Shown: positions 1-52,275, counted from the first letter of the stretch. The stretch is 64,000 bases of DNA from Patescibacteria group bacterium (GCA_022703645.1 JAKLDG010000001.1:274814-338813), one strand, 5' to 3'. The notes: generated from the sequence alone by a model not told the origin. Program-made: numbers and translations.

Positions 1-1033
1 TGTCCAGTTTATTCATAAATCCAAGTGAATGTGACGAGAATATTAATTGAGCCTTTTTATTTTTATCTTCATCAATAAAATAACCAATAAGTTTATTTAA
101 AGCTTCCGGATGAAAACCAGTTTCAAGCTCGTCAATAATAACAACATTATTATTTTTCAATGCACTTAGGATATTTGCCATTACAAAGAATAATGATTTA
201 GTGCCTCTCGATTCATATCCAAAATCCAGTTTGTTATTTTCTGTTTTAGTAGAGTGAACGCCTTGTACGGTTATAGAGAATCCCTTTTCTCTGACATCTT
301 CTTTGATTTCAAAACTATTTAACCCAATATCAAAATGGCGAATAAAATTTTCTACTTCTTTTTTTAGTTCAGAATCACTTAAATAAACCTTAAGTGCATC
401 AATTTGATGCATAACATGATTTATTTCGCCTCTTTCATTAATGTTGGTTTTAAATCCTAAGAAATAATCATAAACACTGTTTATGATATCAACGCTATAA
501 GTAGATTTCTTTATAAAGGCTATAAAAGAAACATCCTCTCTTATTTTTGGAAGAGCACTTATAGAAATATTCTTAAAATAATTTTCATTTAACGAATCTA
601 TAGTGCTTAATTGGCGCGAGAATATTTTTATTTTTTTTGAACCCGCTTGGATTGCTTTTATGTATAGGGATTCTTTTGTGATAATGTCTTTTTTTATTGA
701 GAAGTCATAAAAAAACACATTATTATTATGCTCGAATTCAACATAAAAATTTGATAACTTATCATTACCAAAAAAGGTTTTGAAGGCAATGCCTGGCATA
801 AGAGGGAATTCATCATTTATATTTCTGCATACAAAAAACTTTAGAAAACTAAAGAATCTCATGACATTTGTTTTACCCGATGCATTGCCACCAATAAAAC
901 CAGCAATCTTTGTTATTTGGTCGTCAGTCTTCGACTGATAATAGTCGTAAGTTTTTTTCTTTTTCGCTAGAAAACTAATTTCTTGCTCCTTGTTGAAGGA
1001 ATAAAAATTACTAAACTTTACCTTTCTTATCAT
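1..1033 (-). CDS. AAA-family ATPase (AAA_15/AAA_21-like), 3' end beyond window
   Basis: Minus-strand translation from ATG at 1031-1033 gives MIRKVKFSNFYSF...IGGNASGKTN (Walker A GxNxSGKT), later ...VIIDELETGFHPEA (Walker B-like DE plus HP). The reading frame stays open to the window edge. Confidence 0.5.
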   Translation of the reverse strand, partial: MIRKVKFSNFYSFNKEQEISFLAKKKKTYDYYQSKTDDQITKIAGFIGGNASGKTNVMRFFSFLKFFVCRNINDEFPLMPGIAFKTFFGNDKLSNFYVEFEHNNNVFFYDFSIKKDIITKESLYIKAIQAGSKKIKIFSRQLSTIDSLNENYFKNISISALPKIREDVSFIAFIKKSTYSVDIINSVYDYFLGFKTNINERGEINHVMHQIDALKVYLSDSELKKEVENFIRHFDIGLNSFEIKEDVREKGFSITVQGVHSTKTENNKLDFGYESRGTKSLFFVMANILSALKNNNVVIIDELETGFHPEALNKLIGYFIDEDKNKKAQLIFSSHSLGFMNKLD

Positions 1034-1119
1034 ATTTTTTGAGTTATTATTATTTCTCTAGCTAAGTATATCAGTGATTAAATAATAAGTCAAGTTAATA
1101 CAAAATATTGTATTAAGTC

Positions 1120-1480
1120 CTTAGATAGTCATTCATCTCACGGCTTTGCCGTGCCCCCTCTATAATATAAAAAATCAAATTCGTTTTCCCCTATATAAAA
1201 AAGCCTATCAATATTCCTTATTATAAGAAAAATATTTATTGAATTGCGTATAATGTCTCAGTATATCTGATGTTTCGCTCGATACCAAATTAGTTGAAAA
1301 TAGAAGAGCAGAAATATGGACGAACCCCGAGCCGAGGGGTGAGTCAGATATACTGTGTTAGGCGAGGGATTGATTTACTTACATTATTGAATATATATAA
1401 AAAGTAATCAAGAGCGCAGCGCCCCCTTGAGTTTCAAAAAACAAACTTCTCCTTTATTTAAGAGCTCTTTTGGGATTTTT
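1120..1480 (+). repeat. Modular island repeat, copy A (h1 hairpin 1126-1165; three-way-junction core 1250-1362; reversed AAGAGCTCTT module 1414-1480)
   Basis: Core has stem cagtatatctg/cagatatactg, CTGATGT junction, variable hairpin, AATATGG, a GAGCGA-like box and a GTGTTA tail. It is one of 10 copies. Confidence 0.85.
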
Positions 1481-1572
1481 ATTTTAATTGTTAAACAAGG
1501 ATTAATTTTACAGTTAATGTCAAATATGATAAAATGTGGAAAGAAAAAAAGAAAGGAGCGTGACCTTAACAA

Positions 1573-1958
1573 TGGATAATATGACAGCAGTTGTCTGGGC
1601 AAACAGAACGGAGAGAAGAATCTCCCAAAAAGACCTTCAGAAGATAATAAAGGATCATCTTCGCGAACTTGCGGATATGTATAACAAGTTCACGGACGCC
1701 AGTGATTTCACAAATAATGGCATGGATGTTATAGCCAAAGAAATCAGCGAACGCTTAAAAACCCTCATCGTAACAGGTGGCAACCAGATGGTGTCGGTTT
1801 CGGCGAGCGAAGATGATGTTTCAATAGCGCTCATAGAAATGAGCAAAGAAGGATTCTTCGAGGGCGGGCCGACCGGGTTTTTGGTGGTTGATGTGAAGGG
1901 AAGCCTTACGGAGTTCAAGCTGAAGACGGGAGTCAGAACGAAAACTCGATACGAATAA
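1573..1958 (+). CDS. Hypothetical protein (cassette 1; ~50% GC)
   Basis: ORF 1536..1958. An ATG at 1573 follows the RBS-like gaaaggagcg. GC is clearly higher than the flanks. It is followed by a terminator hairpin and T-run at about 1995-2025. Confidence 0.5.
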
Positions 1959-2017
1959 GTTTTCACACGCAATTCATTACACACAATGTCGAAGCTGGCC
2001 GCTGAGGTCGGCTTTTT

Positions 2018-2215
2018 TTCTTTCCCAAAAATCCCAAAAGAGCTCTAATTAAAATATAAAAAAGTTTGTTTTTGAAATTTCGCCTAATGTTTCGGTATAT
2101 CTGATGTCTAGGCTCGCTACCCAATTAAGTTGATGTAGGAAGAGCATAGATATGGGCGCAGGTTTGCGACTTAGCGAACCGTAGCCAGATATACCGTGTT
2201 ATGTGACGTCATGAA
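2018..2215 (+). repeat. Modular island repeat, copy B (forward AAGAGCTCT module 2018-2085; core 2085-2205)
   Basis: Core stem cggtatatctg/cagatataccg, CTGATGT, hairpin, GATATGG, GTGTTA. Confidence 0.85.
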
Positions 2216-2246
2216 AAATTCTTAATTCGACGATTTTAGTCGAATT

Positions 2247-2273
2247 TTAATCAGGGCAGATTTATTTTTTTAT
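2247..2273. repeat. Left 27-bp terminal inverted repeat flanking the cassette-2 methyltransferase gene
   Basis: ttaatcagggcagatttatttttttat is the exact reverse complement of 3058-3084. Confidence 0.9.
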
Positions 2274-3034
2274 TTCTTGGTTATTATGATTAAGTCGTCC
2301 TTAAAATCTAAGTAATTATTCCTTTGATGTTTTATGATGTTGGCTAAAAACTTCTTTACTTCTGTTGCAGTTGGGAGGGTGTTAGTGTTATGTATAAACC
2401 TATAGTAGTTCTTCAAATCAAAGTTTATTTTCCCGCTCAATATATCGCCCACATACATTCGCATTTTGTAGCGCTTTGTTTTTACAGAAAAGCCCTGTTT
2501 TTTATAAAAATCCGAAATATATTCCGAATAATTAAACTTTGGATACACTTGTTTTATAGCAATGTTATAGTGGTCACTTTCTTCAGGTAAGGTTAATATC
2601 AAAAGCTTACCTTTTTTCTTCAACAAGTCAGTCAGTTTTAACAACTGCTCTTGATAACTCTTTTCATCGGATGCCCAGTAATAATTCGTGTGAGAGGTAA
2701 AAATATAATCATATTTTTCATCGGTTTTTAGTTTGGATAGGGGTGCAGTGAATAGCTTTCCTATATTATTCTCGGGCGATAAAAATGTTTTCGCGTACGA
2801 CAGAGCTTTTTTGTTCGGTTCCAATAGATCGCATGAATAATCATACTCCAATCTGTCTAATATCTGTTTTGTAGTATGACCTTCGCCACATCCAATATCT
2901 AAAATCTTTCCACCTTTTATCTCTTTAACTATACCAAATACAATACCGAACCAGTCTTCGGTTAAGGCTCTGATATATATATTCTCATATACTTCTGCGA
3001 ATTGTTTTTCTCCCCAAAAATCCCATTTTGTCAT
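2270..3034 (-). CDS. Class I SAM-dependent methyltransferase (cassette 2)
   Basis: 254 aa with motif I ILDIGCGEGHTT. It is bounded by perfect 27-bp inverted repeats. Confidence 0.65.
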   Translation of the reverse strand: MTKWDFWGEKQFAEVYENIYIRALTEDWFGIVFGIVKEIKGGKILDIGCGEGHTTKQILDRLEYDYSCDLLEPNKKALSYAKTFLSPENNIGKLFTAPLSKLKTDEKYDYIFTSHTNYYWASDEKSYQEQLLKLTDLLKKKGKLLILTLPEESDHYNIAIKQVYPKFNYSEYISDFYKKQGFSVKTKRYKMRMYVGDILSGKINFDLKNYYRFIHNTNTLPTATEVKKFLANIIKHQRNNYLDFKDDLIIITKK

Positions 3035-3057
3035 AAATATATGTATTTTATTATATC

Positions 3058-3084
3058 ATAAAAAAATAAATCTGCCCTGATTAA
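3058..3084. repeat. Right 27-bp terminal inverted repeat (partner of 2247-2273)
   Basis: ataaaaaaataaatctgccctgattaa. Confidence 0.9.
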
Positions 3085-3109
3085 TTTTGCGTGAGCTACG
3101 CAAAAAAGA

Positions 3110-3441
3110 ATTTTTTATTATGTCACATAATGTCTCCGAGTATCTGATGTCTTTGATTTCCTTCAATATTACATTAAATATAAAAGGAAAGCAAAGATAT
3201 GGGTTGAGCGACGGCAGGAGCGAACCAGATACTCGGTGTTGGGCGACCCGAACGAGCTATTCACTTTATTAAATGTAAAAAGCGAGTGAGAGTGCAACGC
3301 GGTGCAAACGTCCATTTTCTTTTTCCTTTATTTATTGCTGGCTGTAACCACTCATAGTATTAGTAATTATAAGAAAATTTTGCTTCTCCATTTTTGGGCG
3401 AGGTCAGAGGGGATTCAGGGGTGAATGACCGAAGCCCAAAA
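3110..3441 (+). repeat. Modular island repeat, copy C (core 3125-3245; tail module; GGGG-loop hairpin 3392-3441)
   Basis: Core stem ccgagtatctg/cagatactcgg, a compensatory variant of copy A. The 3' module is ttttgggcgaggtcagaggggattcaggggtgaatgaccgaagcccaaaa. Confidence 0.85.
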
Positions 3442-3533
3442 TCATAAATGTTTTCAAAAAAATGTTATTTAAGGTATAATATTTGTTGAACAATAAGTTG
3501 TACCCTAAAAAACGAAAAAAGGAGGTGGTGGTT

Positions 3534-4403
3534 GTGATAAAGTTTTCCAATGGTCATGCCTTTGAATACATGACAGCAAGTGGTGCGTTGGGTTTCGACG
3601 GAAAAGGTTGGCCATGGGAAAAACCGTGGCACTGGCTCGGACTTTTTGACCCGACACTCTTTACTTCGGTAACCAAAACATTGACGCTTCAACCAAGGGA
3701 AGGAAATCTGCGGTGGTATAATCCGCTCCGATGTTTGCGGTTCGTCAGCGGTGGGGTCGTCAATGCAGTTGGTTTGTCAAATCATGGCGTTGATTGGTGG
3801 TGCAATAAGATTGGTCCATCAGTCACTTCCAAAAAAATTCCTTTGGTCGCTTCAATTTTTGGGGAACCAGAGGAATTAGTAGAAATGGCAAGAATGCTGG
3901 ACGGTTTTGACTTGGTCGGACTGGAAATCAATGCATCATGTCCGAACACTGAAACTTGCATTCTGCAAGATACTACGAGAGTAATTGCAAGTTGCGAAGC
4001 GGTCAAAACCAATTCACGCCTACCACTGATTCTGAAAGTATCAGTTACTCACGATGTTCCACGAATCACGAAAGAGGTCGAGGGTCTCATTGACGCAATT
4101 TCGATCAATAGCGTTCCTTGGTCAATGGCTTTTCCAAATCGCAGAAGCCCTCTCGAAAATCTCGGAAACGGTGGCGTATCAGGTAAAGTTGCCCAACCGT
4201 TCACGTGGGGCTTGGTCAAAAAAATTACCGAATTAACAAGTATTCCGGTAATCGGACCGAGCGTTTGGGACTTCGACGACCTCGAAAAAGTCAGAAATTT
4301 TGGTGCGAAGGCCGTCAGTTTTGGTTCTGTCTTTCTGTATCGTCCGTGGAGTCCGACGCTGTATGTTCGGAAAGAACAAAAATTCAAACGATTAAGGGTA
4401 TAG
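3534..4403 (+). CDS. Dihydroorotate dehydrogenase-family TIM-barrel flavoprotein (PyrD-like; cassette 3)
   Basis: NAVGLSNHGVDWW and LEINASCPN, the class-1 DHOD active-site Cys motif. The likely start is GTG at 3534 after GGAGGTG; the ORF track began at an upstream TTG. GC is about 47%. A terminator sits at 4404-4440. Confidence 0.55.
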   Translation: MIKFSNGHAFEYMTASGALGFDGKGWPWEKPWHWLGLFDPTLFTSVTKTLTLQPREGNLRWYNPLRCLRFVSGGVVNAVGLSNHGVDWWCNKIGPSVTSKKIPLVASIFGEPEELVEMARMLDGFDLVGLEINASCPNTETCILQDTTRVIASCEAVKTNSRLPLILKVSVTHDVPRITKEVEGLIDAISINSVPWSMAFPNRRSPLENLGNGGVSGKVAQPFTWGLVKKITELTSIPVIGPSVWDFDDLEKVRNFGAKAVSFGSVFLYRPWSPTLYVRKEQKFKRLRV

Positions 4404-4446
4404 TGGCACCCTGTCATAAATGACGAAGCCACTTTTTATTTTCCCC

Positions 4447-4834
4447 TTAAATAGTCCTTCATCTCACAGCTTTGCTGTGCCCCCTATAAATAAAATAAAA
4501 AAGCAAAATTTTCCCTTTGTTAGAAGAAAATAAATATTCAGTCATCACAAACCTTGCCAGCAAAATATAAGAAAAGAAAATGTATGTCGCCCAATGTTTC
4601 CGAGTATCTGATGTTGCTGATTATTTCTACCTTTATTTTATTATATAAAAGAAAAATCAGCAATATGGGTTGAGGGGCGAGCCGAGCCCCGAACCAGATA
4701 CTCGGTGTTAGGCGAGGGTTCATTTCCCCTTCATTATTAGATTAAATATAAAAGGGGGAATGAAAGCGCAGCGCCCCCTTGAGTTTCAAAAAACAAACGT
4801 CACCTCTATCTAAGAGCTCTTTTGGGATTTTTTG
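4447..4834 (+). repeat. Modular island repeat, copy D (h1 hairpin 4450-4493; core 4592-4712; reversed AAGAGCTCTT module 4766-4834)
   Basis: Core stem ccgagtatctg/cagatactcgg. Its internal hairpin is ttgctgattatttct...agaaaaatcagcaa. Confidence 0.85.
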
Positions 4835-4860
4835 GCTCTGGCGAATTGACCAAAAAAAGC

Positions 4861-4889
4861 TTGACAGAGCCACAAATATGTGATACAAT
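4861..4889 (+). promoter_or_regulatory. Sigma70-like promoter for cassette 4 (TTGACA-17-TACAAT)
   Basis: ttgacagagccacaaatatgtgatacaat lies upstream of an AAGGAGG RBS. Confidence 0.6.
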
Positions 4890-4939
4890 GATTATGTAAA
4901 AAATTTAATGCCCGAGTGGCATATAAGGAGGAAAGGACA

Positions 4940-5218
4940 TTGAAAACAAAGAAAGAGTTAATCGAAGAGAAAAGCGACGGTGTGTTCGGCGCTATGACAG
5001 GTCTGGTGCAGTTTGCTTCGCTGGTAAGTGATGAGGAATTCGCACTGCTGTGCGATAACATTCCCAGCGGCGAACATCTCTGGCTGGACTTCAAGAAGTA
5101 CCGCGACTCAAAGTTTGAAGGTTTCGGTATGTTGCACTATTTTCTTGGCAAGCTGGTAAAAGTCAAGCCAGAGATAGCCACGAAACTCGGGTTCGATCCC
5201 GAAACGGTTGCTCTTTAG
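4940..5218 (+). CDS. Hypothetical small protein (cassette 4; ~50% GC)
   Basis: ORF 4916..5218. TTG at 4940 is 7 nt after aaggaggaaagg. It is followed by a terminator. Confidence 0.4.
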   Translation: MKTKKELIEEKSDGVFGAMTGLVQFASLVSDEEFALLCDNIPSGEHLWLDFKKYRDSKFEGFGMLHYFLGKLVKVKPEIATKLGFDPETVAL

Positions 5219-5299
5219 TTCACACTGTACACGTCTGCGGTACAGCAATAAAACTCCGCGCTGAAATGTTCTTCGGAACAAATCGGCCACGGAGTTTTT

Positions 5300-5672
5300 T
5301 TCTTTCCCAAAAATCCCAAAAGAGCTCTAATTAAAATATAAAAAAGTTTGTTTTTTGAAATTTCGCCTAATGTTTCGGTATATCTGATGTTTCAGCTCGA
5401 TACCAAATTAGTTGATAAAAGAAGAGCAGAAATATGGACCGAGCGAGGGCACGAGCGAGTCAGATATACTGTGTTACCCGACCCGAGCATTTCTTTCATC
5501 TTTATTATATGTAAAAGAATGCGAGAGTGCAACGGGGCAAGCCCCCCCAAGGGCGCAGCGTGTATCTTTCGCTCATTGTTATTAGATTGAACACTTAAAA
5601 GAGATTCAAAACAGAATTATTCCATTTTTGGGCGAGGTCAGAGGGGCAGGGGTGAATGACCGAAGCCCAAAA
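5300..5672 (+). repeat. Modular island repeat, copy E (forward AAGAGCTCT module 5300-5368; core 5368-5478; tail; GGGG-loop hairpin 5626-5672)
   Basis: The most complete copy. The core is near-identical to copies G and H. Confidence 0.85.
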
Positions 5673-5685
5673 CCTTAAATGAATT

Positions 5686-6333
5686 TTATTTTTTCTGTCC
5701 GAAGTTAAGTTTGCGAATTACATTGAAATGCATACTTTCGTCAGGAACAATATAAACAAGACCATCGCATAAAAATTCTCCTGCGCTTGTTTTATCTTCC
5801 AATTCTTTCAATAAATCTGCGGTTTCTTCTTTCGAAATGAATTCTGCAATCGTCATGTGCGGGTTGAACGGAAATCTTCTTGGAACAGCTTCTGAAAATA
5901 ATGAAGCGCTTTCAATTTTTTCTCGTACTGCGTTTAGTTCGGTTTGATTTTCCAAAGGGAAAGCAACTCCTGGGTATGGTGGGTAATCCTTGGGTTTGCC
6001 ATAATTAATTTCGAAAGGTTTAATTTCAGAAGCAATGTTCTGCAATTCCTGCCAATCTTCTTCGGTTAATGGTTTGGGTACGGGCACCGAAATACTAATA
6101 TGTGTATCACAACTAGCCTGCGATTTAGGATCATACTTCGAGCGAAGGGAATTGACCAATGAAAGCACCGGTTCAGGCGGCATGATTAAAATGAGTCCAT
6201 AACGATATTCTTTTTCCCAATTTTCCCAATTATCAACATTTGAAACATATTCAGTAATCGGTTTATTTTTTTCAATTTGTTCATGCGCTGGGGTTGAATC
6301 GTTTTTATTCTCTGGCCAATTTTTTTCTGTCAT
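5686..6333 (-). CDS. 2H phosphoesterase (LigT/2',5'-RNA ligase-like; cassette 5)
   Basis: Two H-x-(T/S)-x motifs (CDTHISI and NPHMTI) about 80 aa apart. The N-terminus MTEKNWPE shares the MT..WP leader with cassettes 7 and 8. Confidence 0.55.
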   Translation of the reverse strand: MTEKNWPENKNDSTPAHEQIEKNKPITEYVSNVDNWENWEKEYRYGLILIMPPEPVLSLVNSLRSKYDPKSQASCDTHISISVPVPKPLTEEDWQELQNIASEIKPFEINYGKPKDYPPYPGVAFPLENQTELNAVREKIESASLFSEAVPRRFPFNPHMTIAEFISKEETADLLKELEDKTSAGEFLCDGLVYIVPDESMHFNVIRKLNFGQKK

Positions 6334-6344
6334 ATAATTATTTT

Positions 6345-6794
6345 TATTAATAAATAGTCCTTCAACTCGTAGCTTTGCTACGCCCCTCTTAAATATAAAA
6401 ATTCTGTTTTAATTTTGTTCAGGCTCAGCACAAACATTTAGAAACAAAAAAGAAAGATACATGTCTGGGTAATGTATGCGTATATCTGATGTTTTTGACT
6501 TGCTTCAATGTTAAATTAAATATAGAAAAAAGTCAAAAATATGGACGAGCGACAGCCGGAGCGAGTCAGATATACGCTGTTCTACGACCCGAAGCCCGAT
6601 ATTCAATATTTATTATATGTAAAATCGGGGTGAGAGTGCAACGCGGGCGTCAGCCGTACATTTTCTTTTTCATTATTATTTATTGCTGGCTGTAACCACT
6701 CAGAGTATTAGTTATTAAATGAAAATTTTGCTTCTCCATTTTTTGGGCGAAGGTCAGAGGGGAATTAAAGGGGTGAATGACCTGAGCCCAAAAT
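6345..6794 (+). repeat. Modular island repeat, copy F (h1 variant hairpin 6352-6388; core 6470-6585; tail; GGGG-loop hairpin 6741-6794)
   Basis: h1 is ctcgtagctttgctacg, a compensatory variant of cacggctttgccgtg. Core stem is gcgtatatctg/cagatatacgc. Confidence 0.85.
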
Positions 6795-6876
6795 CCCTTA
6801 ATGAATTTTGGACAAAAAAATATGCCCGGATTACCGCCGGGCGCGGGATCGTTTACAGAACGGAGAGCACAAGGTT

Positions 6877-7203
6877 TCATTTGTGCTCTTGATCAAAAAA
6901 ATCTTCGAAGTCTTTCAGGGTTTTGCGAAGCTTGGATTTTTTTGGTAAGGACTTTTTGCCGTGGGTTTCAATCTCGATTCTCACCGGAACTTCAAATCCT
7001 TTGGTTTTTTCCGTGAAAAACATCGTCCCACTTGTGCCGACAACATCAGCATCCACTTCTCTCAAGAAATCTCTGTTAAATAAAATGGGATGTCTTTTGC
7101 CTTTTGCATCTCCGAGAGAAACTCTGACACTGTGGGGGAGGACTTCGATAACAAGAAAGGGATATCCCTTTTGTTCTTCTGTGCTGAGGGCAGTTTTTTT
7201 CAT
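6877..7203 (-). CDS. Hypothetical protein, 108 aa (cassette 6)
   Basis: ORF only. I could not support a family assignment. Confidence 0.35.
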   Translation of the reverse strand: MKKTALSTEEQKGYPFLVIEVLPHSVRVSLGDAKGKRHPILFNRDFLREVDADVVGTSGTMFFTEKTKGFEVPVRIEIETHGKKSLPKKSKLRKTLKDFEDFFDQEHK

Positions 7204-7317
7204 AATTCAGATTCCTCGCTTCCTTTGGTTTTTTTGATATGTTAAGGTATTTCAATAATACCACAAATGTTTGGATTTGTCAATGGCTTTTTGGCACAAC
7301 AGAGCTAAAAAACCAAA

Positions 7318-7752
7318 TTAAATAGTCCTTCATCTCACGGCTTTGCCGTGCCCCCTCTATAATCAAATAAAAAAGCAAAATTTTCCCTTTGTTAGAAAAG
7401 AATAAATATTCAGTCATCACAAACCTTGCCAGCAAAATATAAGAAAAGAAAATGTATGTCGTAGAATGTCTCAGTATATCTGATGTTTCGCTCGATACCA
7501 AATTAGTTGATAAAAGAAGAGCAGAAATATGGACCGAGCGAGGGCACGAGCGAGTCAGATATACTGTGTTACCCGACCCGAGCATTTCTTTCATCTTTAT
7601 TATATGTAAAAGAATGCGAGAGTGCAACGGGGCGAAGCGTGTATCTTTCTGACTATTGATATTAGAATTAACACTTAAAAGAGAACAAAACAGAATTATT
7701 CCATTTTTGGGCGAGGTCAGAGGGGCAGGGGTGAATGACCGAAGCCCAAAAC
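7318..7752 (+). repeat. Modular island repeat, copy G (h1 hairpin 7322-7366; core 7465-7575; tail; GGGG-loop hairpin 7704-7752)
   Basis: The X-type upstream module is near-identical to 4447-4600. The core is near-identical to copy E. Confidence 0.85.
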
Positions 7753-7753
7753 C

Positions 7754-8602
7754 TTATTTAAAATATTGTGGCACCATCCCTACTTCGGCTAATTTGTTAC
7801 ATTCTATTTCCCACGATTCTTTTTCTTTTTTTGCCATTTCTAAACCCTCCCATAAATCGCTTTTAGAATCTGTGTACAAAAAATTTCTATAAATATTCGA
7901 AAAGGTTGTATGGCGAAAAGATTTTTCTCCATAGGCAACATCTCCTTGATTATCTAAAAATATTTTTTCAATATTATCAACCATCGCGTTCAAACAATGC
8001 AAGAATTCTTGTAGAAAATAAAAAGCATTTCCCATTTTGATTCTTAACTTTTGTTGATAGTCATCAAAATATTCCGGATTAAATGGTCTTGATAGAAATT
8101 GAAAGCAATCCTCCACGCCTTTTGCATCATTTGCAATTCTATCGTAAATTTTTTTTCTAAAATTCGCATCTGATTCATTCTTGGGATCACGATTTTTATC
8201 AATTATTAAAATCGCATCATTAATAATTGGTTCAACATTTTTAACAAAGTAATTTTTAGCCTCGCGCCACTTACCTTCTAATTCTTCTCTTAGTTTTGGA
8301 AATTCCGTTACTTTTATAAATCTAATGTCTTTAGAAGGGGATATGTTAAAGGTAGGATTCTTTATTATAACATCTATTGGTGGAAGCATCCTTGTTAATT
8401 CGTCAATCTTTTCACCTATTTTCTCATCACTAAATTCATTTTTATATTTTTCTAAAAATTTTTCTATATTTTTTATGGTTTTCTCTATAAATTCACTTTT
8501 TTCTGCTCTTTTTTCGACCACATTAATATTATCAACTTTGGGTTGTTCTTCTTTTAGTGGGTTAGTGTTGTCGCCTGTCGGCCATTTTATTGGATCTGTC
8601 AT
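7754..8602 (-). CDS. Hypothetical protein (cassette 7) with the shared MTDPIKWP N-terminal leader
   Basis: ORF 7754..8635 from an upstream TTG inside the repeat module. The ATG at 8602 gives MTDPIKWPTGDNTNP, followed by a Pro/Glu/Lys-rich region. Confidence 0.45.
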   Translation of the reverse strand: MTDPIKWPTGDNTNPLKEEQPKVDNINVVEKRAEKSEFIEKTIKNIEKFLEKYKNEFSDEKIGEKIDELTRMLPPIDVIIKNPTFNISPSKDIRFIKVTEFPKLREELEGKWREAKNYFVKNVEPIINDAILIIDKNRDPKNESDANFRKKIYDRIANDAKGVEDCFQFLSRPFNPEYFDDYQQKLRIKMGNAFYFLQEFLHCLNAMVDNIEKIFLDNQGDVAYGEKSFRHTTFSNIYRNFLYTDSKSDLWEGLEMAKKEKESWEIECNKLAEVGMVPQYFK

Positions 8603-8619
8603 AAGTTTATTTTTTATTA

Positions 8620-9044
8620 ATAAATAGTCCTTCAACTCGTAGCTTTGCTACGCCCCTTTTAAATATAAGAATTCTGTTTTGATTTTATTCAGGTTCAGCA
8701 TAAACATTTAGAAGAAAAAAAGAAAGATACATGTCTGGGTAATGTTTCAGTATATCTGATGTTTCAGCTCGCCACCTTATTCACTTGATAGAGAAAGAGC
8801 AGAAATATGGACCGAGCGAGGGCACGAGCGAGTCAGATATACTGTGTTACCCGACCCGAGCCCTGATACCTTATTTATTATATGCAAAGAAGGGCGAGAG
8901 TGCAACGGGGCAAGCCCCTCAAGGGCGAAGCGTGTATCTTTCTGTTCATTGTTATTAGATTTAATACTTAGAAGAGATTCAAAACAGAATTATTCAATTT
9001 TTGGGCGAGGTCAGAGGGGCAGGGGTGAATGACTGAAGCCCAAA
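8620..9044 (+). repeat. Modular island repeat, copy H (h1 variant 8624-8662; core 8740-8852; tail; GGGG-loop hairpin 8997-9044)
   Basis: Same architecture as copy F and copy E. Confidence 0.85.
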
Positions 9045-9055
9045 ACCTTGATAAT

Positions 9056-9931
9056 TTAATCCTTCTTTTTTGTAAATAAATGCACTGCATTTGGACCAGC
9101 AACACCAAAAATACCTTCATGATGTGTTTTATAACCAGATAGATCAAGAGATTGATGAAGTATAATGCATCCTTCTGGGCTTAGTACTCTATCAATTTCT
9201 TTATTTATAGCCTTAACATATTCTGGGTCTGCATCGTGCATTACACAATCGTCTATACCTGAAGCGTAAATACTAACCGAGTCATCAGGAAGTCTTCTTA
9301 AAAAGGAAAGCATATCTTCATCAGCTACTGAGGCAGGAATCCCGTGAAAATATTCTATCTTCCCTTGTGTATAGTTGCTATTCGTATTGATCAGTTCTGA
9401 TAGTGAGTTCTTTAATTCTGATTTACTTTTGTCTAATGTCTCACTAAGTTGGGAAGAGAAAAATTTATCTACACCGACATATGATTTTGCTCCCAATATG
9501 TCAAGGATGTAGTACGCATCTCTACCGCTCATACCGGCTCCTAGGTCAATTACTATTTGGTTTTTGAGATGTTCCAGCGTAGTCGCAAAGGTTGTGTTTT
9601 GTTCGTTTACTCCTGCATTACGATTTTTAAATTTTTCAATAAGCTCTCCCTCTGTCAAATCCGGATTTGCATTTTTTAAATTAACAAAAAATTTCAAAGG
9701 ATTAATCATCCATCTGAATGCACTATCAGAAAAAGATTGTGGAAGATCGTATCCAGTTTTTTTAAATTCTTTACCAATATCAGTGTTCTGTTCTTTTTCT
9801 TTGATTCCGGGAACTAGCTCTTCAACTGGTCTTAAAATACTTTCTTCTGATTCTTTTTCTACAGTGTTTTCAACTTCAATTTTTGGCTTAGGTGGTTCTG
9901 TATTTGGGTTTGGCCATTTTGGGTCTGTCAT
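9056..9931 (-). CDS. Class I SAM-dependent methyltransferase-like protein (cassette 8) with the shared MTDPKWP leader
   Basis: VIDLGAGMSGRDAYYIL is a motif-I-like sequence. The ATG at 9931 gives MTDPKWPNPNTEPP; the ORF track started at an upstream TTG inside the repeat. Confidence 0.5.
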   Translation of the reverse strand: MTDPKWPNPNTEPPKPKIEVENTVEKESEESILRPVEELVPGIKEKEQNTDIGKEFKKTGYDLPQSFSDSAFRWMINPLKFFVNLKNANPDLTEGELIEKFKNRNAGVNEQNTTFATTLEHLKNQIVIDLGAGMSGRDAYYILDILGAKSYVGVDKFFSSQLSETLDKSKSELKNSLSELINTNSNYTQGKIEYFHGIPASVADEDMLSFLRRLPDDSVSIYASGIDDCVMHDADPEYVKAINKEIDRVLSPEGCIILHQSLDLSGYKTHHEGIFGVAGPNAVHLFTKKKD

Positions 9932-9944
9932 AGATTTATTTTTT

Positions 9945-10310
9945 ACTATTAAATAGTCCTTCAACTCGTAGCTTTGCTACGCCCCTCTTAAATATAAAGA
10001 ATTCTGTTTTGAATTTCGTTAAGCTCAGTACAAGCGTTTAGAAGTAAAAAAGAAAGATACATGTTGGGTAATGTCTCATAGTATCTGATGTTGCTGATTA
10101 TTTCTACCTTGATTATATTATACAGAAGAAAAATCAGCAATATGGGTTGAGGGGCGAGCCGAGCCCCGAACCAGATACTATGTGTTAGGCGAGGGTTCAT
10201 TTCCCCTTCATTATTAGATTAAATATAAAAAGGAAATGAAAGCGCAGCGCCCCCTTGAGTTTCAAAAAACAAACTTCACCTCTATTTAAGAGCTCTTTTG
10301 GGATTTTTTG
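9945..10310 (+). repeat. Modular island repeat, copy I (h1 variant 9948-9986; core 10070-10190; reversed AAGAGCTCTT module 10240-10310)
   Basis: Core stem catagtatctg/cagatactatg, another compensatory variant. Confidence 0.85.
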
Positions 10311-10318
10311 GCTACCTA

Positions 10319-10347
10319 TTGACATTTTTTGGGAAATATGATAAGAT
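10319..10347 (+). promoter_or_regulatory. Sigma70-like promoter for cassette 9 (TTGACA-17-TAAGAT)
   Basis: ttgacattttttgggaaatatgataagat upstream of an aaaggag RBS. Confidence 0.5.
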
Positions 10348-10397
10348 TAATTATCGGTTTTTGCGGATATATAATCCAATAGAAAGGAGTAAAATCG

Positions 10398-10790
10398 ATG
10401 ATCTTTAAGAACTTACAATTGGAAACAGGCGACTTTGTTGCGTTTCAAACAGAGGCTGTTCCGCTTCCGGAAGTTCAGGCGGCTGTCATCGGTATTGAGG
10501 ATGGCGTACTCGAAGTCATGAGTACCTTGCTCGCACCATTCCAGCACAACGGGAAATTTACAGAAGACGAGGTAGGCCAAATCATGGTCGTCTATCCATC
10601 AGCGATTGCCATTCCTCGGGAGTCTCGAGGCAAAAACTTCTCTAAACACCAAGGTGTATCCGTCATCATCAAGGGCGGAGAGGAACATCGGGGTGAAGTT
10701 GTTGCTGCGTTCGACGGTATCGTCGTGGCACGCAGAAGCGATGGTGAGCTGATCACCGGCGGAGCTTCGCATTTCAATGCTGTTGCCTAA
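10398..10790 (+). CDS. Hypothetical protein, 130 aa (cassette 9; ~50% GC)
   Basis: ATG with RBS. GC is well above the flanks. A terminator follows at about 10815-10846. Confidence 0.5.
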   Translation: MIFKNLQLETGDFVAFQTEAVPLPEVQAAVIGIEDGVLEVMSTLLAPFQHNGKFTEDEVGQIMVVYPSAIAIPRESRGKNFSKHQGVSVIIKGGEEHRGEVVAAFDGIVVARRSDGELITGGASHFNAVA

Positions 10791-10842
10791 GAATCGACAG
10801 CAAGTCCTGCTAATTGAGCGCACGACCTACGGGTACGGCGCT

Positions 10843-11135
10843 TTTTTCTTCCCTAAAAATCCCAAAAGAGCTCTAATTAAAATATAAAAAAGTTTGTTTT
10901 TTGAAATTTCGCCTAACGTTTCGGCATATCTGATGTTTGCCGTAGCGTAGCGAAGGCAAATATGGGTGGAGGCTTTTGTATAAAAGCCGTAACCAGATAT
11001 GCCGTGTTATGTGATGTGCATGTTTTACTTTAATCCTGATAGCAATCGGGATTGCTCTAAAAAAGAATTTTAATTTTGTTTTTTTGTTTTGGATTTTGGG
11101 CAGAGGGGTTAGGGGTGAATGCCCAAAATCCAAAA
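10843..11135 (+). repeat. Modular island repeat, copy J (forward AAGAGCTCT module 10843-10918; core 10915-11012; GGGG-loop hairpin 11089-11129)
   Basis: Core stem cggcatatctg/cagatatgccg. The perfect hairpin is ggattttgggc-agaggggttaggggtgaa-tgcccaaaatcc. Confidence 0.85.
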
Positions 11136-11139
11136 CTCC

Positions 11140-11547
11140 TTATTCTGCTAATAATTTAAACACTAAGCTAAATATTTTTGGTGAAAAATCTTTATAAATT
11201 AACTCTCTCGTCTCGTCCTCACCAAATGACCAAAATTTACCATTAATTTCTAAACCAGTAGGATAATGACTCTCGTGAAATAATTTATTTCTTATTTCTC
11301 TTAAAGATTCTAAAAATTTAAGTTCCGCGTCATCAATTAAATCCTTTTCTTTAGCTTCTGTAATTATTCTATGAAAATTGCCGTCAATTTTATTGACAGA
11401 AAATTTTATAATCTGTTCTGACAAAACAAATAGACAAGCAAGCGCAGAAAAGTAATTTTCTTGTTCATAAGAATTTTGTGCCTCGAAACATAATTTCCCA
11501 AAAATATGGTCTCTTTCATTTATTTTTGCAATTATATCGGTATTCAT
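11140..11547 (-). CDS. Hypothetical protein, 135 aa, co-oriented with and abutting the C5-methyltransferase gene
   Basis: ORF only. Its stop is 2 nt from the methyltransferase start. Confidence 0.4.
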   Translation of the reverse strand: MNTDIIAKINERDHIFGKLCFEAQNSYEQENYFSALACLFVLSEQIIKFSVNKIDGNFHRIITEAKEKDLIDDAELKFLESLREIRNKLFHESHYPTGLEINGKFWSFGEDETRELIYKDFSPKIFSLVFKLLAE

Positions 11548-11549
11548 GT

Positions 11550-12527
11550 TTATTTCAAATCAGCCATTATTTTTTTTGCTAAATGGTGGGCAAAATTTAC
11601 TGCGACAGCATTTCCAATCATTTTATATCCGTCGGCAATATCACGATATTTAAAAATAAAATTATCAGGGAATGTTTGAATCCTTGCACATTCACGAACA
11701 GACAAGCGACGATATAAATGTTCTTTTCCGGGAACAAAAATTCTTTTATTTTGACTGATAAATTTCATTTTCGGAGCTTGGGGATGAATTGGAGCATGGC
11801 GACCACCGGCTTGAATGGTAAAAGAAGGTTCATCCCATGAGCGAACACGATTTCGCGACATATAAATTGAAGAAAAACCGCCATTCATGTATTCGTGATT
11901 TGGAATTTTTAACACATCGCCATTTGTCTTATTTTTATCTAACGCAGGTTTTGCTAAACGCAAATCATAAATAGCGTCTTTCAATACTGGTTTATATTTT
12001 TGCGGTTCTGGAAATTCAAATTTTTTCTTTAGTTTTTTATTATATCCAACAATAATGACACGCAATCTATCTTCAGGAACATCATAATCATTTGCATTTA
12101 ATAATTTGCAGGAAATTTCATATCCAGCATTTTCAAATTCTTTTATTATATTTGAAAAAGCCTCTTTGTGTTTAGGGTGAAGAATACCCGATACATTTTC
12201 TGCAAGAAAAAATTTTGGTTGTTTTTCCTTTAATAAACGAATGTAATCATAAAATAATTTTCCTCTTTTATCATTTATTCCACGTCCAGCCCCAGCCTCG
12301 CTCCAACTTTGACAAGGTGGTCCGCCAATGATTCCGTCAACATCGGGAATTTCAGAAGCAGGGACGTCGACAATACTTCTTTTATCAAGTTTTGTTTTTG
12401 GAAAATTGTGTTCAAAAGTTTCCCAAATTGTGGGGTCATATTCATTTGCCCAGACGACATGAAAACCAGCTTTTTCAAAGCCTAAATCAAGTCCTCCTGC
12501 ACCTGTAAACAATGAAGCTATTTTCAT
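11550..12527 (-). CDS. DNA (cytosine-5)-methyltransferase
   Basis: Motif I FTGAGGLDLGF, motif IV GGPPCQSWS, ENV. Confidence 0.9.
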   Translation of the reverse strand: MKIASLFTGAGGLDLGFEKAGFHVVWANEYDPTIWETFEHNFPKTKLDKRSIVDVPASEIPDVDGIIGGPPCQSWSEAGAGRGINDKRGKLFYDYIRLLKEKQPKFFLAENVSGILHPKHKEAFSNIIKEFENAGYEISCKLLNANDYDVPEDRLRVIIVGYNKKLKKKFEFPEPQKYKPVLKDAIYDLRLAKPALDKNKTNGDVLKIPNHEYMNGGFSSIYMSRNRVRSWDEPSFTIQAGGRHAPIHPQAPKMKFISQNKRIFVPGKEHLYRRLSVRECARIQTFPDNFIFKYRDIADGYKMIGNAVAVNFAHHLAKKIMADLK

Positions 12528-12529
12528 AA

Positions 12530-13534
12530 TTATTCGTGACTAATATTTAGTGTGTTTTTAAATAATTTTTTCGGCGATTTCAAAAGATTTATATCAAATT
12601 TCAAAGACGATTCAACCCTAGAACTTGCATTATGAATACGAAAAGAAAGAGTCCAATCATTATTCATGGTTACTATTGCCGTTGTTTGGCTATCGGTTTT
12701 GAAACAAATATCAACAATTTCTGTTGGCAATGGAACTTTTGGTGTTTTGTATTTTGGAAGAATGTCGTTAAAAGGCAAATTTAATGTTCCATTCAAATTG
12801 TATGCGTGTATTTCTACACTATTTTTGCCTTTAATAACTTTGTAAAAATCTTTATTTCCAACGAGGTATGCAACTAGATTAGACGCTACTTTTTTAGAAT
12901 CTTTTTTGTATAGATTTTTCAGTTCTTTAATAAAGGCTTTTAAAATTGGAATATAGATTGATGAATGATAATCACCAAGCTCACTCCACTTTTTCTTTGC
13001 ACCGCTTTCTTTTCTAATTTTCTCTAAATTGTTAAAAATAGGTGTTACTGTTTCAAAATATTCTTTTGATGTTTTTATTCCAAGCCACTTTTCACCAAAA
13101 TCAATATTTGAAGATAGTCGGGAATGCTTTACTGCATGATGATTGTTTTTGGCCGATACTCCAATTTCCCATTTTTGCAACAAACGAATTGCTAAAACAT
13201 CTCTAACATCGCCTGATTTTCCATGTTGATCGGATAAAATTTCAAGTTGCAGAATATCATCTTTACCAACATCATTTGTGAGGCGTGGCTCTATATCCAT
13301 TAGAAAATTAACCGCAAAACTAGCGGTGAGTAAATAATCACTTTTTTCTGTTTCGCTCACATTTTCAAAACATCCTTTTGCAATTTCAAAAGAAGAATTT
13401 TTGATAACTTCAAGATTTGTTTTATCTTTCAATTTTTCTTCAAATTGAACAAGTAAAGCATATTCAAAAGATTTTCCAGTTGTCATTTGTCTTGATGCAG
13501 TAGTAGTCATATTTTTATTATTACATTTTTCCAT
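12530..13534 (-). CDS. Putative cognate Type II restriction endonuclease
   Basis: 334-aa ORF directly upstream of and co-oriented with the C5-methyltransferase gene. I recognise no motif, so the call rests on context only. Confidence 0.35.
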   Translation of the reverse strand: MEKCNNKNMTTTASRQMTTGKSFEYALLVQFEEKLKDKTNLEVIKNSSFEIAKGCFENVSETEKSDYLLTASFAVNFLMDIEPRLTNDVGKDDILQLEILSDQHGKSGDVRDVLAIRLLQKWEIGVSAKNNHHAVKHSRLSSNIDFGEKWLGIKTSKEYFETVTPIFNNLEKIRKESGAKKKWSELGDYHSSIYIPILKAFIKELKNLYKKDSKKVASNLVAYLVGNKDFYKVIKGKNSVEIHAYNLNGTLNLPFNDILPKYKTPKVPLPTEIVDICFKTDSQTTAIVTMNNDWTLSFRIHNASSRVESSLKFDINLLKSPKKLFKNTLNISHE

Positions 13535-13662
13535 TTAAAAATAAATCGTTTTCGTAGCGGAGCGGAGAAAACACCTTATACCCCTTTCTAATTAATAAAA
13601 AACAAAATTTAAATTCTTTTTTAGAGCTGGGCGATAGCCCAAAAGTAAAACATGCATTTCAC

Positions 13663-13709
13663 ATAACTCGTTTTTATCTGAATATATTTCAGATAAAAAC
13701 GAGTTACGG
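13663..13709. promoter_or_regulatory. Perfect 19-bp-arm palindrome in the divergent region between the REase and recombinase genes
   Basis: taactcgtttttatctgaa-tatat-ttcagataaaaacgagtta. It contains the ATCTGA/TCAGAT boxes also present in the repeat cores. Confidence 0.5.
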
Positions 13710-13783
13710 TAGTTTATGCGGTTATTGTGTACATTCTTCAACATCTTTGATATTATCGATTTAATATTATCATTTTTTATTAT

Positions 13784-14605
13784 ATGCAACAATACTTAGA
13801 TAGATTGTCGCAGGAATTACGATTAAGAAATTATAGTAACAGCACGGTCGAAAGTTACCTGACGTGCGTGAAATATTATTTTTATTTTGTGGAAAGAAAT
13901 GGCGCAAGAATTGAAGATGGTGATCAGGATATTCTCAAATCATTTCTTCTTGATAAACATAACAAAGGGTCCTCATCACAAACGATCAATCTTTATCTCA
14001 ATGCGATAAAGTTTTTTTATCGGGAAATCATGAAATCACCACAAAGTATCGATATTAGATTTGCCAAGAAATCAAATAAGCTGCCGGTAGTCCTCTCGCA
14101 TGATGAGATTGAAAGAATTATTGAAGTAACAAAAAATTCAAAGCATCGGCTCATTATTTCGCTGAGCTATGGCGCAGGGTTGAGAGTGAGCGAAATCATA
14201 AGTTTAAAAGTTAAAGACTTGGATTTGGATAGCTTAACGATTCACCTAAAAAATGCGAAGGGGAAAAAGGACAGAATTACGGTTTTGCCGGTAAAATTAG
14301 TTAATTCTTTGCGCAATGCGGTTGCGGGCAAGGATATTGATGATCTGGTTTTTGAAAGCGAGAGAGGCGGGGGATTGACCGATCGGACTGCACAGGTCAT
14401 TTTCAACAATGGGTTGAGGAGAGCGGGAATCAAAAAAGAAGCGACATTCCACTCGCTTCGCCATTCGTTCGCTACACATCTGCTTGAAAACGGTACAGAC
14501 ATTCGTTACATTCAAGAATTGCTTGGACATCAAAATATTCGAACGACTCAAATTTATACAAAAGTGACAAACCCGGCGGTACGCAATATAAAAAGCCCGC
14601 TGTAA
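13784..14605 (+). CDS. Tyrosine site-specific recombinase (XerC/D-like phage-integrase family)
   Basis: AGLRVSE (catalytic Arg), HSLRHSFATHLL (H-x-x-R), LGHQNIRTTQIYTKV (nucleophilic Tyr). At 273 aa it is shorter than classical IntI. Confidence 0.85.
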   Translation: MQQYLDRLSQELRLRNYSNSTVESYLTCVKYYFYFVERNGARIEDGDQDILKSFLLDKHNKGSSSQTINLYLNAIKFFYREIMKSPQSIDIRFAKKSNKLPVVLSHDEIERIIEVTKNSKHRLIISLSYGAGLRVSEIISLKVKDLDLDSLTIHLKNAKGKKDRITVLPVKLVNSLRNAVAGKDIDDLVFESERGGGLTDRTAQVIFNNGLRRAGIKKEATFHSLRHSFATHLLENGTDIRYIQELLGHQNIRTTQIYTKVTNPAVRNIKSPL

Positions 14606-14624: not shown

Positions 14625-15152
14625 ATGCAAAACGAAAATAAAAATAGAAAATCAATCCGTTTAAAAGAATATGATTATTCTGAACCAGGAGATTATTTTG
14701 TTACAATTTGCACACAGAATCGAGAATGTTTGTTTGGGGAGATTGTAGACGGTAAGATGATTTTAAATGAAATGGGATTAATAGTTAATGATTGTTGGAA
14801 TGATTTAGAAAATCATTACCCGGGAATTTATTTGGATATATTTACAATCATGCCGAACCATATTCATTTTATATTAACAATATTGTGCGATGATCATATT
14901 GTAGGGGCGGGTTTGAAACCCGCCCCTACGGGGAAGCGATATCAATTGTTCGAGATAATTCGTGGGTTCAAAACATTCTCTGCAAGAAAAATAAATAAAA
15001 TGAAAAATACATCTGGTAATCCTGTTTGGCAACGCAACTATTACGAACACATCGTTCGCAACGAACAATCTTACGATGAAATTTATTCTTACATAGAGTC
15101 TAATTCTCAAACCTGGGATCGGGATAGGAATAATCCAAAAAATATGATATAA
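14625..15152 (+). CDS. IS200/IS605-family HUH transposase-like protein (RAYT/TnpA-REP-like)
   Basis: 175 aa with an HUH motif in IMPNHIHFIL. It contains an in-frame REP-like palindrome at 14901-14929. Confidence 0.65.
   Translation: MQNENKNRKSIRLKEYDYSEPGDYFVTICTQNRECLFGEIVDGKMILNEMGLIVNDCWNDLENHYPGIYLDIFTIMPNHIHFILTILCDDHIVGAGLKPAPTGKRYQLFEIIRGFKTFSARKINKMKNTSGNPVWQRNYYEHIVRNEQSYDEIYSYIESNSQTWDRDRNNPKNMI
14901..14929. repeat. REP-like palindrome GTAGGGGCGGGTTTGAAACCCGCCCCTAC inside the transposase ORF
   Basis: Perfect 13-bp arms. The same GTAGGGGCG head occurs at three operon-end hairpins. Confidence 0.7.
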
Positions 15153-28509: not shown

Positions 28510-28625
28510 GGGAATTTTCAATTTTACAATTCTCAATTTTCAATCAATGAAACAATGTATTAATGTTTGAAAATTGAATCATTGAAAATTCAATGAAAAT
28601 TGTGAATTGATAATTGGAAATTATG
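28510..28625. repeat. AT-rich imperfect palindromic element (CAATTTTCAATTG-word family), copy 1
   Basis: aattttacaattctcaattttcaatcaatg and its near-complement flank a short centre. Confidence 0.7.
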
Positions 28626-30721: not shown

Positions 30722-30852
30722 TTGTTTAATAGAATTTTCAATTTACAATTTCCAGTTTTCAATAAATTTTCAATTTTTCAATGTTTCAAAATTGTGAATT
30801 GATTCATTGGTTCATTGATTGAAAATTGAGAATTGAAAATTGTAAATTATTT
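30722..30852. repeat. AT-rich palindromic element (CAATTTTCAATTG family), copy 2
   Basis: The right arm cattgattgaaaattgagaattgaaaattgtaaatt is the reverse complement of the copy-1 left arm. Confidence 0.7.
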
Positions 30853-52270: not shown

Positions 52271-52275
52271 GACGC

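Follow-up and report, generated by a model that had tools for sequence, protein, structure and literature searches.

The first 13.7 kb of the window, by which we mean the whole 64,000-nucleotide stretch of DNA analysed here, hold short accessory genes separated by a repeat of 300-450 nt. Ten direct copies of this repeat (A to J, positions 1245-11015) were found through two conserved arms, TATCTGATG and CAGATA...GTT, and modules that we call h1, m1, tail and G-tract hairpin are variously combined in them. Genes and repeats form an array of cassettes, named X and then A to J from the left, which ends beside a tyrosine recombinase gene (Table 1). Most cassette ORFs lie on the window minus strand, which is the sense (top) strand of the cassettes; in 4 of the 11 cassettes the genes are reversed and have promoters of their own. 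The payload proteins are mutually unrelated, except for a weak N-terminal similarity between those of cassettes G and H, and are enclosed by cassette ends that are up to 100% identical. A PADLOC search of the payloads returned a methyltransferase-type match only. Methylases distantly related to the one in cassette J (31-32% identity) occur in two other arrays (L045 and L057).

Table 1. Positions of the array, its sites and modules and the neighbouring features, counted from the first nucleotide of the window.
Feature	Position	Strand	Remarks
Cassette array, at least 11 cassettes (X, then A-J)	1-13667	-	Cut by the left end of the window
attC-like core A	1248-1363	+	Hybrid: 5´ half like E/G, 3´ half like D/I
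attC-like core B	2082-2204	+	
attC-like core C	3125-3244	+	
attC-like core D	4589-4713	+	
attC-like core E	5365-5479	+	Core inside the stretch 5300-5672
attC-like core F	6467-6585	+	
attC-like core G	7461-7574	+	Core and tail 100% identical to E over 144 nt
attC-like core H	8737-8852	+	
attC-like core I	10066-10190	+	
attC-like core J	10911-11012	+	Canonical R´ GCCTAAC; three-gene R-M cassette
Leader of cassette D (5´ end, cassette sense)	5219-5370	+	Terminator of gene 4916-5218; m1 forward 5313-5327; m1ext 5346-5360; R´ half TTCGCCTAA
Tail stem-loop of cassette E	5480-5538	+	CCCGAGC...GAGAGTGCAACGGGG; branches off the extended stem directly after R´´-GA
Trailer inverted-repeat segments of cassette E	5560-5618	+	GTGTATCTTTC, CAAAACAGAATT; complementary to own leader 6400-6464
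G-tract hairpin of cassette E	5625-5672	+	Abuts 3´ end of gene 5686-6333 (minus strand)
G-tract hairpin of cassette J	11086-11136	+	Pan-Patescibacteria consensus form
Further G-tract hairpins	3391-3441, 6741-6793, 7704-7751, 8998-9045		Six in all
h1 hairpin in cassette E leader	6355-6386	+	
Further h1 copies	1126-1157, 4452-4483, 7323-7354, 8625-8656, 9954-9985		Six in all
m1 forward	2031, 5313, 10859		
m1 reverse	1462, 4814, 10290		
Three-gene cassette nearest the recombinase (cassette J)	11140-13534		HaeIII-type restriction endonuclease, C5 cytosine methylase, 135-aa ORF
attI-like region	13668-13783	+	Mini-palindrome TCGTTTTTATCTGAA-TATAT-TTCAGATAAAAACGA-GTTAC at 13668-13707
Tyrosine recombinase, 273 aa	13784-14605	+	IntI-like, without I2/additional domain; divergent from the cassettes
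RAYT-like Y1 transposase ORF	14625-15152		In-frame perfect palindrome GTAGGGGCGGGTTTGAAACCCGCCCCTAC (14901-14929)
AATTTTCAATTTT...-type inverted repeats	28513-28622, 30732-30848, 35992-36108, 38607-38722, 39783-39894		A/T-rich, intergenic
AACAAGAAAACAATAAAYCAAGAAAWCAAATG	42700-54901		Purine-rich; 12 copies

A preliminary description of this DNA had reported the repeat to be a mosaic of at least five modules, each of them in a subset of copies. All of these modules are present where it placed them, and since their order varies among copies A to J the mosaic is genuine, not a product of mis-parsing. Within the 64 kb, h1, m1, the tail and the G-tract hairpin occur in the array only. No module has a match in Rfam at the gathering thresholds, and the sole match at E <= 1 is a sub-threshold chance one, on the attI palindrome.

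Each repeat holds a core of about 115 nt (102-125 nt), which on the + strand consists of RYYYAA(T/C), GTYTC, an 11-nt L´, a hairpin (P2), ATATGG, a variable P3, an 11-nt L´´, a T and GTTRRRY, and whose consensus fold is a three-way junction. In core E the order is R´ GCCTAAT, the bulge GTTTC, the 11-bp L stem, hairpin P2, ATATGG, the P3 region, L´´ and R´´ GTTACCC. All ten window copies have GTT; in the left triplet 9 of 10 have AAT, AAC being found in J and at the attI side, and the canonical form TTCRYYYAAC...GTTRRRYGA is found in at least 64 sites of other Patescibacteria loci; the R´´/R´ boxes with AAC/GTT that characterize attC sites are thus present. All 208 of the 208 cells that make up the 21 pairs of the fold are paired in the ten window cores, with compensatory changes at eight pairs, and pairing of this extent was reached by none of 500 shuffles and fell to 24-52% in slid controls. 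The fold recurs in 43 other genomes, where 64 sites show pairing in 97.4% of cells and compensatory changes at 14 pairs, so that structure is conserved over sequence, as in attC, both in the window and across genomes. The T.G of the R box and a G.T that never varies in P2 form wobble pairs on the + strand, but on the opposite strand they would become A.C mismatches, which points to the + strand as the one that folds. A covariance model of the core scores the ten copies at 78-131 bits, and a search with it detected nothing comparable in the remaining 50 kb of the window. The extrahelical bases of a canonical attC reportedly sit on the L´´/R´´ arm of the folded bottom strand. Here that arm has none, and all 11 bp of the L stem form without interruption; it is the R´-L´ arm, the cleaved one, that carries the unpaired GTYTC and, in some cases, a bulged C.

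There is one defined breakpoint per repeat, and it lies in the left arm, at or just after the AA|Y of RYYYAA|Y. When the seven variable nucleotides after GTT are compared with the reverse complement of the left arm of the next copy, 59 of 70 positions match (copy by copy 6, 7, 7, 6, 4, 7, 4, 6, 6 and 6, the last comparison being that of J with the site beside the recombinase), as opposed to 36 of 70 for the left arm of the same copy. Random assignment gives 38 +/- 3.6 matches, and 59 is reached in 1 of 200,000 permutations (p about 5e-6); complementarity to the next copy holds in other genomes too, over as much as 22 of 24 nt. Similarity between cores tracks similarity between right flanks (r = 0.51, Mantel p = 0.004), as against r = 0.11 for left flanks in the window, and with 30 sites, including those of related metagenome contigs, the values are 0.64 (p < 2e-4) and -0.04. 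The right flank of one copy is in turn correlated with the left flank of the next (r = 0.59, p < 5e-5). Cores E and G have unrelated left flanks despite their identity through the tail. The complementarity to the next copy, the linkage of cores to right flanks only and the identity of E and G therefore place the sole breakpoint in the left arm. This is the rule of integrons, in which crossover occurs in R´ and the outer R´ is complementary to the R´´ of the neighbouring cassette, applied here with the minus strand of the window serving as top strand of the cassettes. A breakpoint in the right arm (G|TT on the + strand, with the minus strand as the canonical-looking folded strand) was ruled out by the flank-linkage tests.

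If cassettes are taken to extend from each AA|Y to the following one, every inter-gene repeat combines parts of two cassettes: everything to the left of RYYYAA| is the leader of the left cassette, and the core with all that follows to the right is the trailer (3´ end) of the right one. The boundary between cassettes D and E, for example, falls between 5370 and 5371. Every cassette defined in this way has cognate ends, with a leader and a trailer that are inverted repeats and extend the R´/R´´ stem; folded as circular junctions, cognate leaders and trailers form 43-69 base pairs in the MFE structure, and those of array neighbours 0-41. The preliminary description had proposed that modules reassort by recombination between copies. 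The combinations do differ and recombination is very probably the cause, but of a site-specific kind, at the left-arm breakpoint, by which whole cassettes would be shuffled with their leaders and trailers; the modules are not independent and are grouped in cassette-specific sets. Free exchange between modules fails to account for the pattern, and adjacent repeats look reassorted as a consequence of the arbitrary order of cassettes. Core A stands somewhat apart, being 93% identical to core G in its 5´ half and resembling cores D and I in its 3´ half, a hybrid that points to recombination or gene conversion within a core.

At least four sets of ends can be told apart. In type Ia (cassettes E, G and H, R´´ GTTACCCGAC) the trailer comprises the tail stem-loop, inverted-repeat segments and the G-tract hairpin, and the leader comprises h1 and the matching inverted-repeat segments; type Ib (C and F) has the same modules and a different leader. 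Type II (A, D and I, R´´ GTTAGGCGAG) has a trailer with the GCGCAGCGCCCCC stem-loop, m1ext reverse and m1 reverse and a leader with m1 forward and m1ext forward. In type III (B and J, R´´ GTTATGTGAY), trailer and leader have their own inverted repeats of 27-31 nt, which flank the payloads; inverted repeats also bracket every cassette of a Moranbacteria MAG (L048). The finding that m1 (ATCCCAAAAGAGCTC) occurs in both orientations around the core, forward on the 5´ side of B, E and J and reverse on the 3´ side of A, D and I, was correct as first described. Core pairs A/B, D/E and I/J each bracket one gene, so that, once the array is parsed by cassette, with cognate ends, the two orientations of m1 turn out to be the terminal inverted repeat of type II cassettes. 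The tail (GAGAGTGCAACG) is likewise present, in five copies, but not as a module of its own: it is a variant of the same module as the GCGCAGCGCCCCC motif in the m1-type copies, in that the tail and the type II GCGCAGCG motif are two forms of one stem-loop, GARAGYGCARCG, closed by CCCG/CGGG or GGG/CCC and inserted directly after R´´-GA. Cassettes that do not have a tail-type stem-loop show a conserved T.T plus T.G mismatch at the same position of the extended stem (GATGTA versus GAAATA). Given the complementarity of the two ends, the + (bottom) strand of a cassette excised as a circle would be expected to form a single long hairpin with branches, and for cassette G the predicted circular junction of cognate ends would read ...GTCTGGGTAA|TGTCTCAGTATATC.

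The h1 hairpin, which like m1 is specific to this lineage, had been credited with one compensatory variant; its stems are indeed compensatory, but there are three of them (CACGGC/GCCGTG, CACAGC/GCTGTG and CGTAGC/GCTACG). A possible promoter in h1 (TTGAAG-17-AATAAT) was weak and inconsistent between copies. Just 3´ of h1 in cassette E lies GCCCCTCT, which is complementary to AGAGGGGC in the loop of the G-tract hairpin of the same cassette, and the first G-tract is complementary to CCCCTCT beside h1, again within one cassette. As a general partner of the G-tract loop, CCCCT is enriched about 4-fold in leaders yet occurs in 17 of 74 of them, which does not amount to a general rule.

The G-tract hairpin had been described correctly except that GAA was missing between TGACC and GCCCAAAA in the sequence given. 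In 25 cassettes from about 20 genomes its stem covaries (10 of 12 pairs) around an invariant loop, AGAGGGG-N(2-7)-GGGGTGAAT. In roughly half of the cases (about 16 of 31) the cassette ORF ends within the 3´ foot of the hairpin (...AAAC TCC TTA TT), with its stop codon (TAA, TAG or TGA) at a fixed spot. Because it has no T-run and an invariant loop of 19 nt, the hairpin is no ordinary terminator. We also considered a small ORF, a Shine-Dalgarno site and a start codon, none of which agrees with the lack of conservation of the ATG and of the reading frames. The h1 and G-tract hairpins both hold their position when the payload is inverted, as in cassette C, which makes us favour a function in the structure or insulation of the cassette DNA rather than in the expression of a particular gene, and we would guess that they serve to clamp the cassette palindrome at the end nearest the payload, or to insulate that end.

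The array ends at ...CACATAAC|TCG (13667/13668), 116 nt upstream of the recombinase gene, and the mini-palindrome that follows shares a TATCTGA L-box with the attC cores. The layout is that of an integron, with an adjacent divergent integrase and an attI-like site in between. Among NCBIfam models the recombinase scores highest with 'integron integrase' (TIGR02249, 223.5 bits against a cut-off of 265, in two stretches), followed by a XerA-type model at 214.8 bits, and the closest solved relative is VchIntIA (2a3v, 2e-47), which also aligns in two pieces. Residues 182-202 of the recombinase, 21 in number, replace residues 183-246 of IntI4, whereas the alignment with XerA is uninterrupted from end to end; the IntI-specific additional domain, with its I2 helix, is therefore absent. 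The literature holds this domain to be defining and necessary for attC recombination, the I2 helix being what enables recombination of a folded single-stranded attC (PMC7790495, PMC9668308), and its absence thus counts against an integron. So does a classification by Smyshlyaev et al., in which the Xer-related recombinases found in candidate phyla form a 'Cand' subgroup that is presumed to stand in for Xer (PMC8138268); on that view the family was taken to be the housekeeping Xer of these phyla. A canonical IntI elsewhere in these genomes may act in trans. In integrons a Pc promoter drives promoterless cassettes; in the region 13668-14000 there is no consensus-like minus-strand promoter, and several cassettes have promoters of their own. 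Between 14000 and 64000 the cumulative GC skew climbs monotonically and almost every gene is on the + strand, and genes diverge at about 13.7 kb; the array thus lies at a strand-switch point, which looks origin-proximal rather than terminal.

The link between core and recombinase extends to other genomes. Relatives of the recombinase number 467 in the species-representative genome set, and the best 80 of them are about 270 aa long, 56-66% identical and come overwhelmingly from Patescibacteria MAGs. With a covariance model built solely from the ten cores of the window, the loci of these best 80 of 467 yielded 92 matches at E <= 1, of which 91 share the strand of the recombinase. Upstream sequence exceeds 1 kb in 51 loci; 42 of these have at least one match at E < 1e-3 upstream of the recombinase, always in the same orientation, and no core match below E = 1e-3 was found downstream in these 51 loci. 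Contigs end within 350 nt upstream of the recombinase gene in 21 of the 80, as is expected if repeats break assemblies. Two contigs that are closest to the window by their array modules, L086 (142-2376) and L091 (9130-9918), and the first of which is also closest by obg (76% amino-acid identity), encode recombinases only 49-51% identical to that of the window, and many more distant Patescibacteria recombinases are 58-66% identical. The integrase may have been exchanged horizontally or may evolve fast.

A metagenome scan with h1 recovered 12 related contigs with the same grammar, namely core, tail, G-tract hairpin, payload and h1, and core, GCGCAGCG, m1 reverse, payload and m1 forward; a scan with the attI palindrome for strain variants with another first cassette gave 0 matches. 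The X-type leader seen in the window also occurs in two related contigs (L086 and L088), and the cassette that comes after it differs in all three, an indirect sign that cassettes may be shuffled. Payloads and ends can also be separated. The ends of cassette J (10991-11140 and 13540-13667) are 97% and 95% (94-97%) identical to positions 5851-6001 and 7236-7364 of L048, the Moranbacteria MAG, whose integrase is 58% identical; the ORFs between these J-like ends are unrelated, homology breaking off at the stop codon on one side and, on the other, no more than a few bases from the start codon. A homologue of payload I (10398-10790), with 90% amino-acid identity, occurs in another contig (L084, 1551-2640), where it stands behind a trailer with tail and G-tract hairpin, not one of the m1 type. 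The R´´ and R´ of this cassette are not cognate, and this mismatch suggests that it may be two cassettes fused by deletion. Reassortment of payloads and their surrounding cassette ends, the chassis, between genomes exists, and attC recombination does not explain it.

We conclude, with a probability of roughly 80%, that the repeat consists of the attC-type site and the conserved non-coding ends of cassettes, which in this Patescibacteria (CPR) bacterium are arrayed on the chromosome in the manner of an integron. In the proposed mechanism an IntI-like recombinase that has no I2 would exchange cassettes at AA|Y between attC and attI-like sites, presumably with the folded single strand as its substrate. 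Besides the recombinase itself, several observations count against this interpretation: the missing extrahelical bases, the bulge on the cleaved arm and the AAT in 9 of 10 copies; the absence of an identified Pc promoter and the reversed genes with their own promoters in 4 of 11 cassettes; and the swaps between chassis and payload.

The alternative that survives best, which we consider unlikely, is a housekeeping Xer-type recombinase that acts on double-stranded dif-like sites, in the manner of IMEX or of Acinetobacter pdif modules, the hairpin potential of the repeats being incidental. The recombinase gene adjoins its site in xerS/difSL and xerH/difH, and here an 11-5-11 dif-like palindrome lies about 80 nt upstream of the gene. 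The Xer architecture of the recombinase, aligned end to end with XerA and without I2, and its classification in the Xer-related 'Cand' group (PMC8138268) would suit such a system. Crossover in Xer/dif, IMEX and pdif systems takes place in the 6-8 bp centre of a duplex site of ~28 bp, at a terminus or with inverted flanks; at this locus, however, the cassette junction AAC|TCG (13667/13668) is 15 nt outside the centre of the palindrome, and 70-90 nt separate the inverted L arms of the cores, more than a core site in duplex form would allow. The stems covary as the sequence varies, the G.T wobbles are strand-specific, and R´/R´´ complementarity is kept between the two ends of each cassette, of which double-strand exchange has no need. 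All sites are direct repeats, unlike pdif modules, and the steady rise of cumulative GC skew and the divergence of genes at 13.7 kb mark this as a position other than a terminus. As a dif site, the palindrome beside the recombinase is disfavoured by GC skew and by the position of the junction.

The preliminary description had also raised the possibility of independently acting, terminator-like motifs. One part of this stands, in that the G-tract hairpin is autonomous and conserved across genomes, but h1 and m1 are lineage-specific. The corresponding scenario, in which independent regulatory hairpins (terminators, UTR elements or protein-binding sites) gathered at gene boundaries and were reshuffled by homologous recombination, with no mobile cassettes, strikes us as very improbable. 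It would accommodate the sigma-70-like promoters and intrinsic terminators that several payloads have next to the modules, the G-tract hairpins that abut ORF stop codons in about 16 of 31 cases, and the existence of chassis/payload hybrids. Intrinsic terminators have a G+C-rich stem, a short loop and a T-run, though, and neither h1 nor the G-tract hairpin conforms to this or was called terminator-like in our terminator and promoter scans. Furthermore, the modules are confined to the array and keep a constant orientation relative to the recombinase, h1 and the G-tract hairpin stay in place when a payload is inverted, and a single breakpoint per repeat with complementarity to the next copy is unexpected of regulatory motifs.

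BIME and BOX elements are classical mosaics of short modules. A REP/BIME-like or MITE/BOX-like origin of the repeat, spread by the RAYT-like Y1 transposase, is the least credible explanation: the RAYT-like ORF adjoins the array (NCBIfam REP_Tyr_transpos, 52.7 bits, under the cut-off of 80) and one h1 variant contains GTAG, but REP/BIME systems have short palindromes genome-wide along with a RAYT gene and here the other 50 kb of the window hold no copies, there is one repeat per gene boundary, all are direct, the cores are three-way junctions of 100-125 nt as against REPs of 20-40 nt, and the absence of a RAYT-like ORF beside the recombinase at all 80 other loci (the best 80 of 467 relatives) rules the link out. 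Elsewhere in the window, AATTTTCAATTTT-type inverted repeats of as much as 65 nt, 89% complementary between distant copies, form another intergenic family, which is not related to the first and could be REP-like partners of the RAYT-like gene or terminators. Copies of AACAAGAAAACAATAAAYCAAGAAAWCAAATG lie directly upstream of + strand start codons and may be a conserved translation leader.

Returning to the integron-like array, we would classify it, as far as sequence comparison can tell, as a new, I2-less variant of integron with a conserved cassette chassis. Canonical RYYYAAC/GTTRRRY arrays are tied to an I2-less IntI-like recombinase in dozens of Patescibacteria genomes, and we tentatively suggest, at somewhat less than even odds, that Patescibacteria have a separate, widespread and functional integron lineage, characterized by an integrase without I2, attC sites without extrahelical bases, a reusable chassis (extended end palindromes, tail stem-loop and G-tract hairpin) and ORFs placed at start and stop codons. 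If the recombinase is the catalyst, it would be a natural counter-example to the I2 paradigm or an evolutionary intermediate, and tools that require the IntI-specific domain would call such loci integrase-less attC clusters. If the lineage is real, cassette capture would be independent of I2, the innovation held to define integron integrases; I2 would have been either never present or lost, and a pre-I2 ancestral state is possible. We know of no account of how gene cassettes arise. Conserved ends around unrelated ORFs, in loci with integrases only 58% identical, make cassette genesis directly approachable, and if ORFs enter the chassis at start and stop codons, this would offer a first sequence-level handle on how cassettes are made. 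We found no description of integrons or attC arrays in Patescibacteria in the searchable literature, the coverage of which is incomplete, and our data suggest that in ultra-small bacteria with reduced genomes there is a substantial route of gene flux that has gone unrecognised.

Comparison with known systems places the array nearest to integrons. BIME/REP and pneumococcal BOX elements are also intergenic repeats of short modules in variable combination and orientation, but they are dispersed genome-wide and, unlike the Patescibacteria array, have neither bounds linked to a recombinase nor a cassette-wise rule of complementarity. Xer/dif with single-strand IMEX, as in the CTX phage, likewise combines an I2-less Xer-like recombinase with a folded single-stranded hairpin that mimics a duplex site, and this state has been proposed as the evolutionary precursor of integrons (PMC7790495). 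In contrast to the CTX type, in which one phage occupies the chromosomal dif, there are here many-cassette arrays with integron-type R boxes and a recombinase-adjacent site that is not at the terminus. Archaeal integrons, too, came to light in MAGs from lineages other than the classical bacterial phyla, for the most part as clusters of attC sites in fragmented assemblies (Ghaly et al. 2022, PMC9668308). Their IntIs reportedly retain the additional domain specific to IntI, and their attC sites fold canonically (PMC9668308), whereas in the Patescibacteria family the domain is missing throughout. Sedentary chromosomal integrons, such as the Vibrio cholerae superintegron with its VCR attC sites, share the most with the array: a divergent integrase and an attI-side junction; many cassettes in a long array, most of them with a single ORF, that carry unrelated accessory genes, an R-M system among them; attC sites some 100-125 nt in length, which have RYYYAAC...GTTRRRY boxes as well as a variable region that branches; closely similar attC sites on unrelated ORFs; and crossover in R´, by which each arrayed attC is a hybrid of two cassettes. 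The Patescibacteria array differs from them in an integrase without the I2/additional domain, in an L stem without extrahelical bases and with a bulge of 4-5 nt on the cleaved arm, in cassette ends that remain complementary for 25-100+ nt past the R boxes, in the extra conserved tail stem-loop, G-tract hairpin, h1 and m1, and in its Patescibacteria host.
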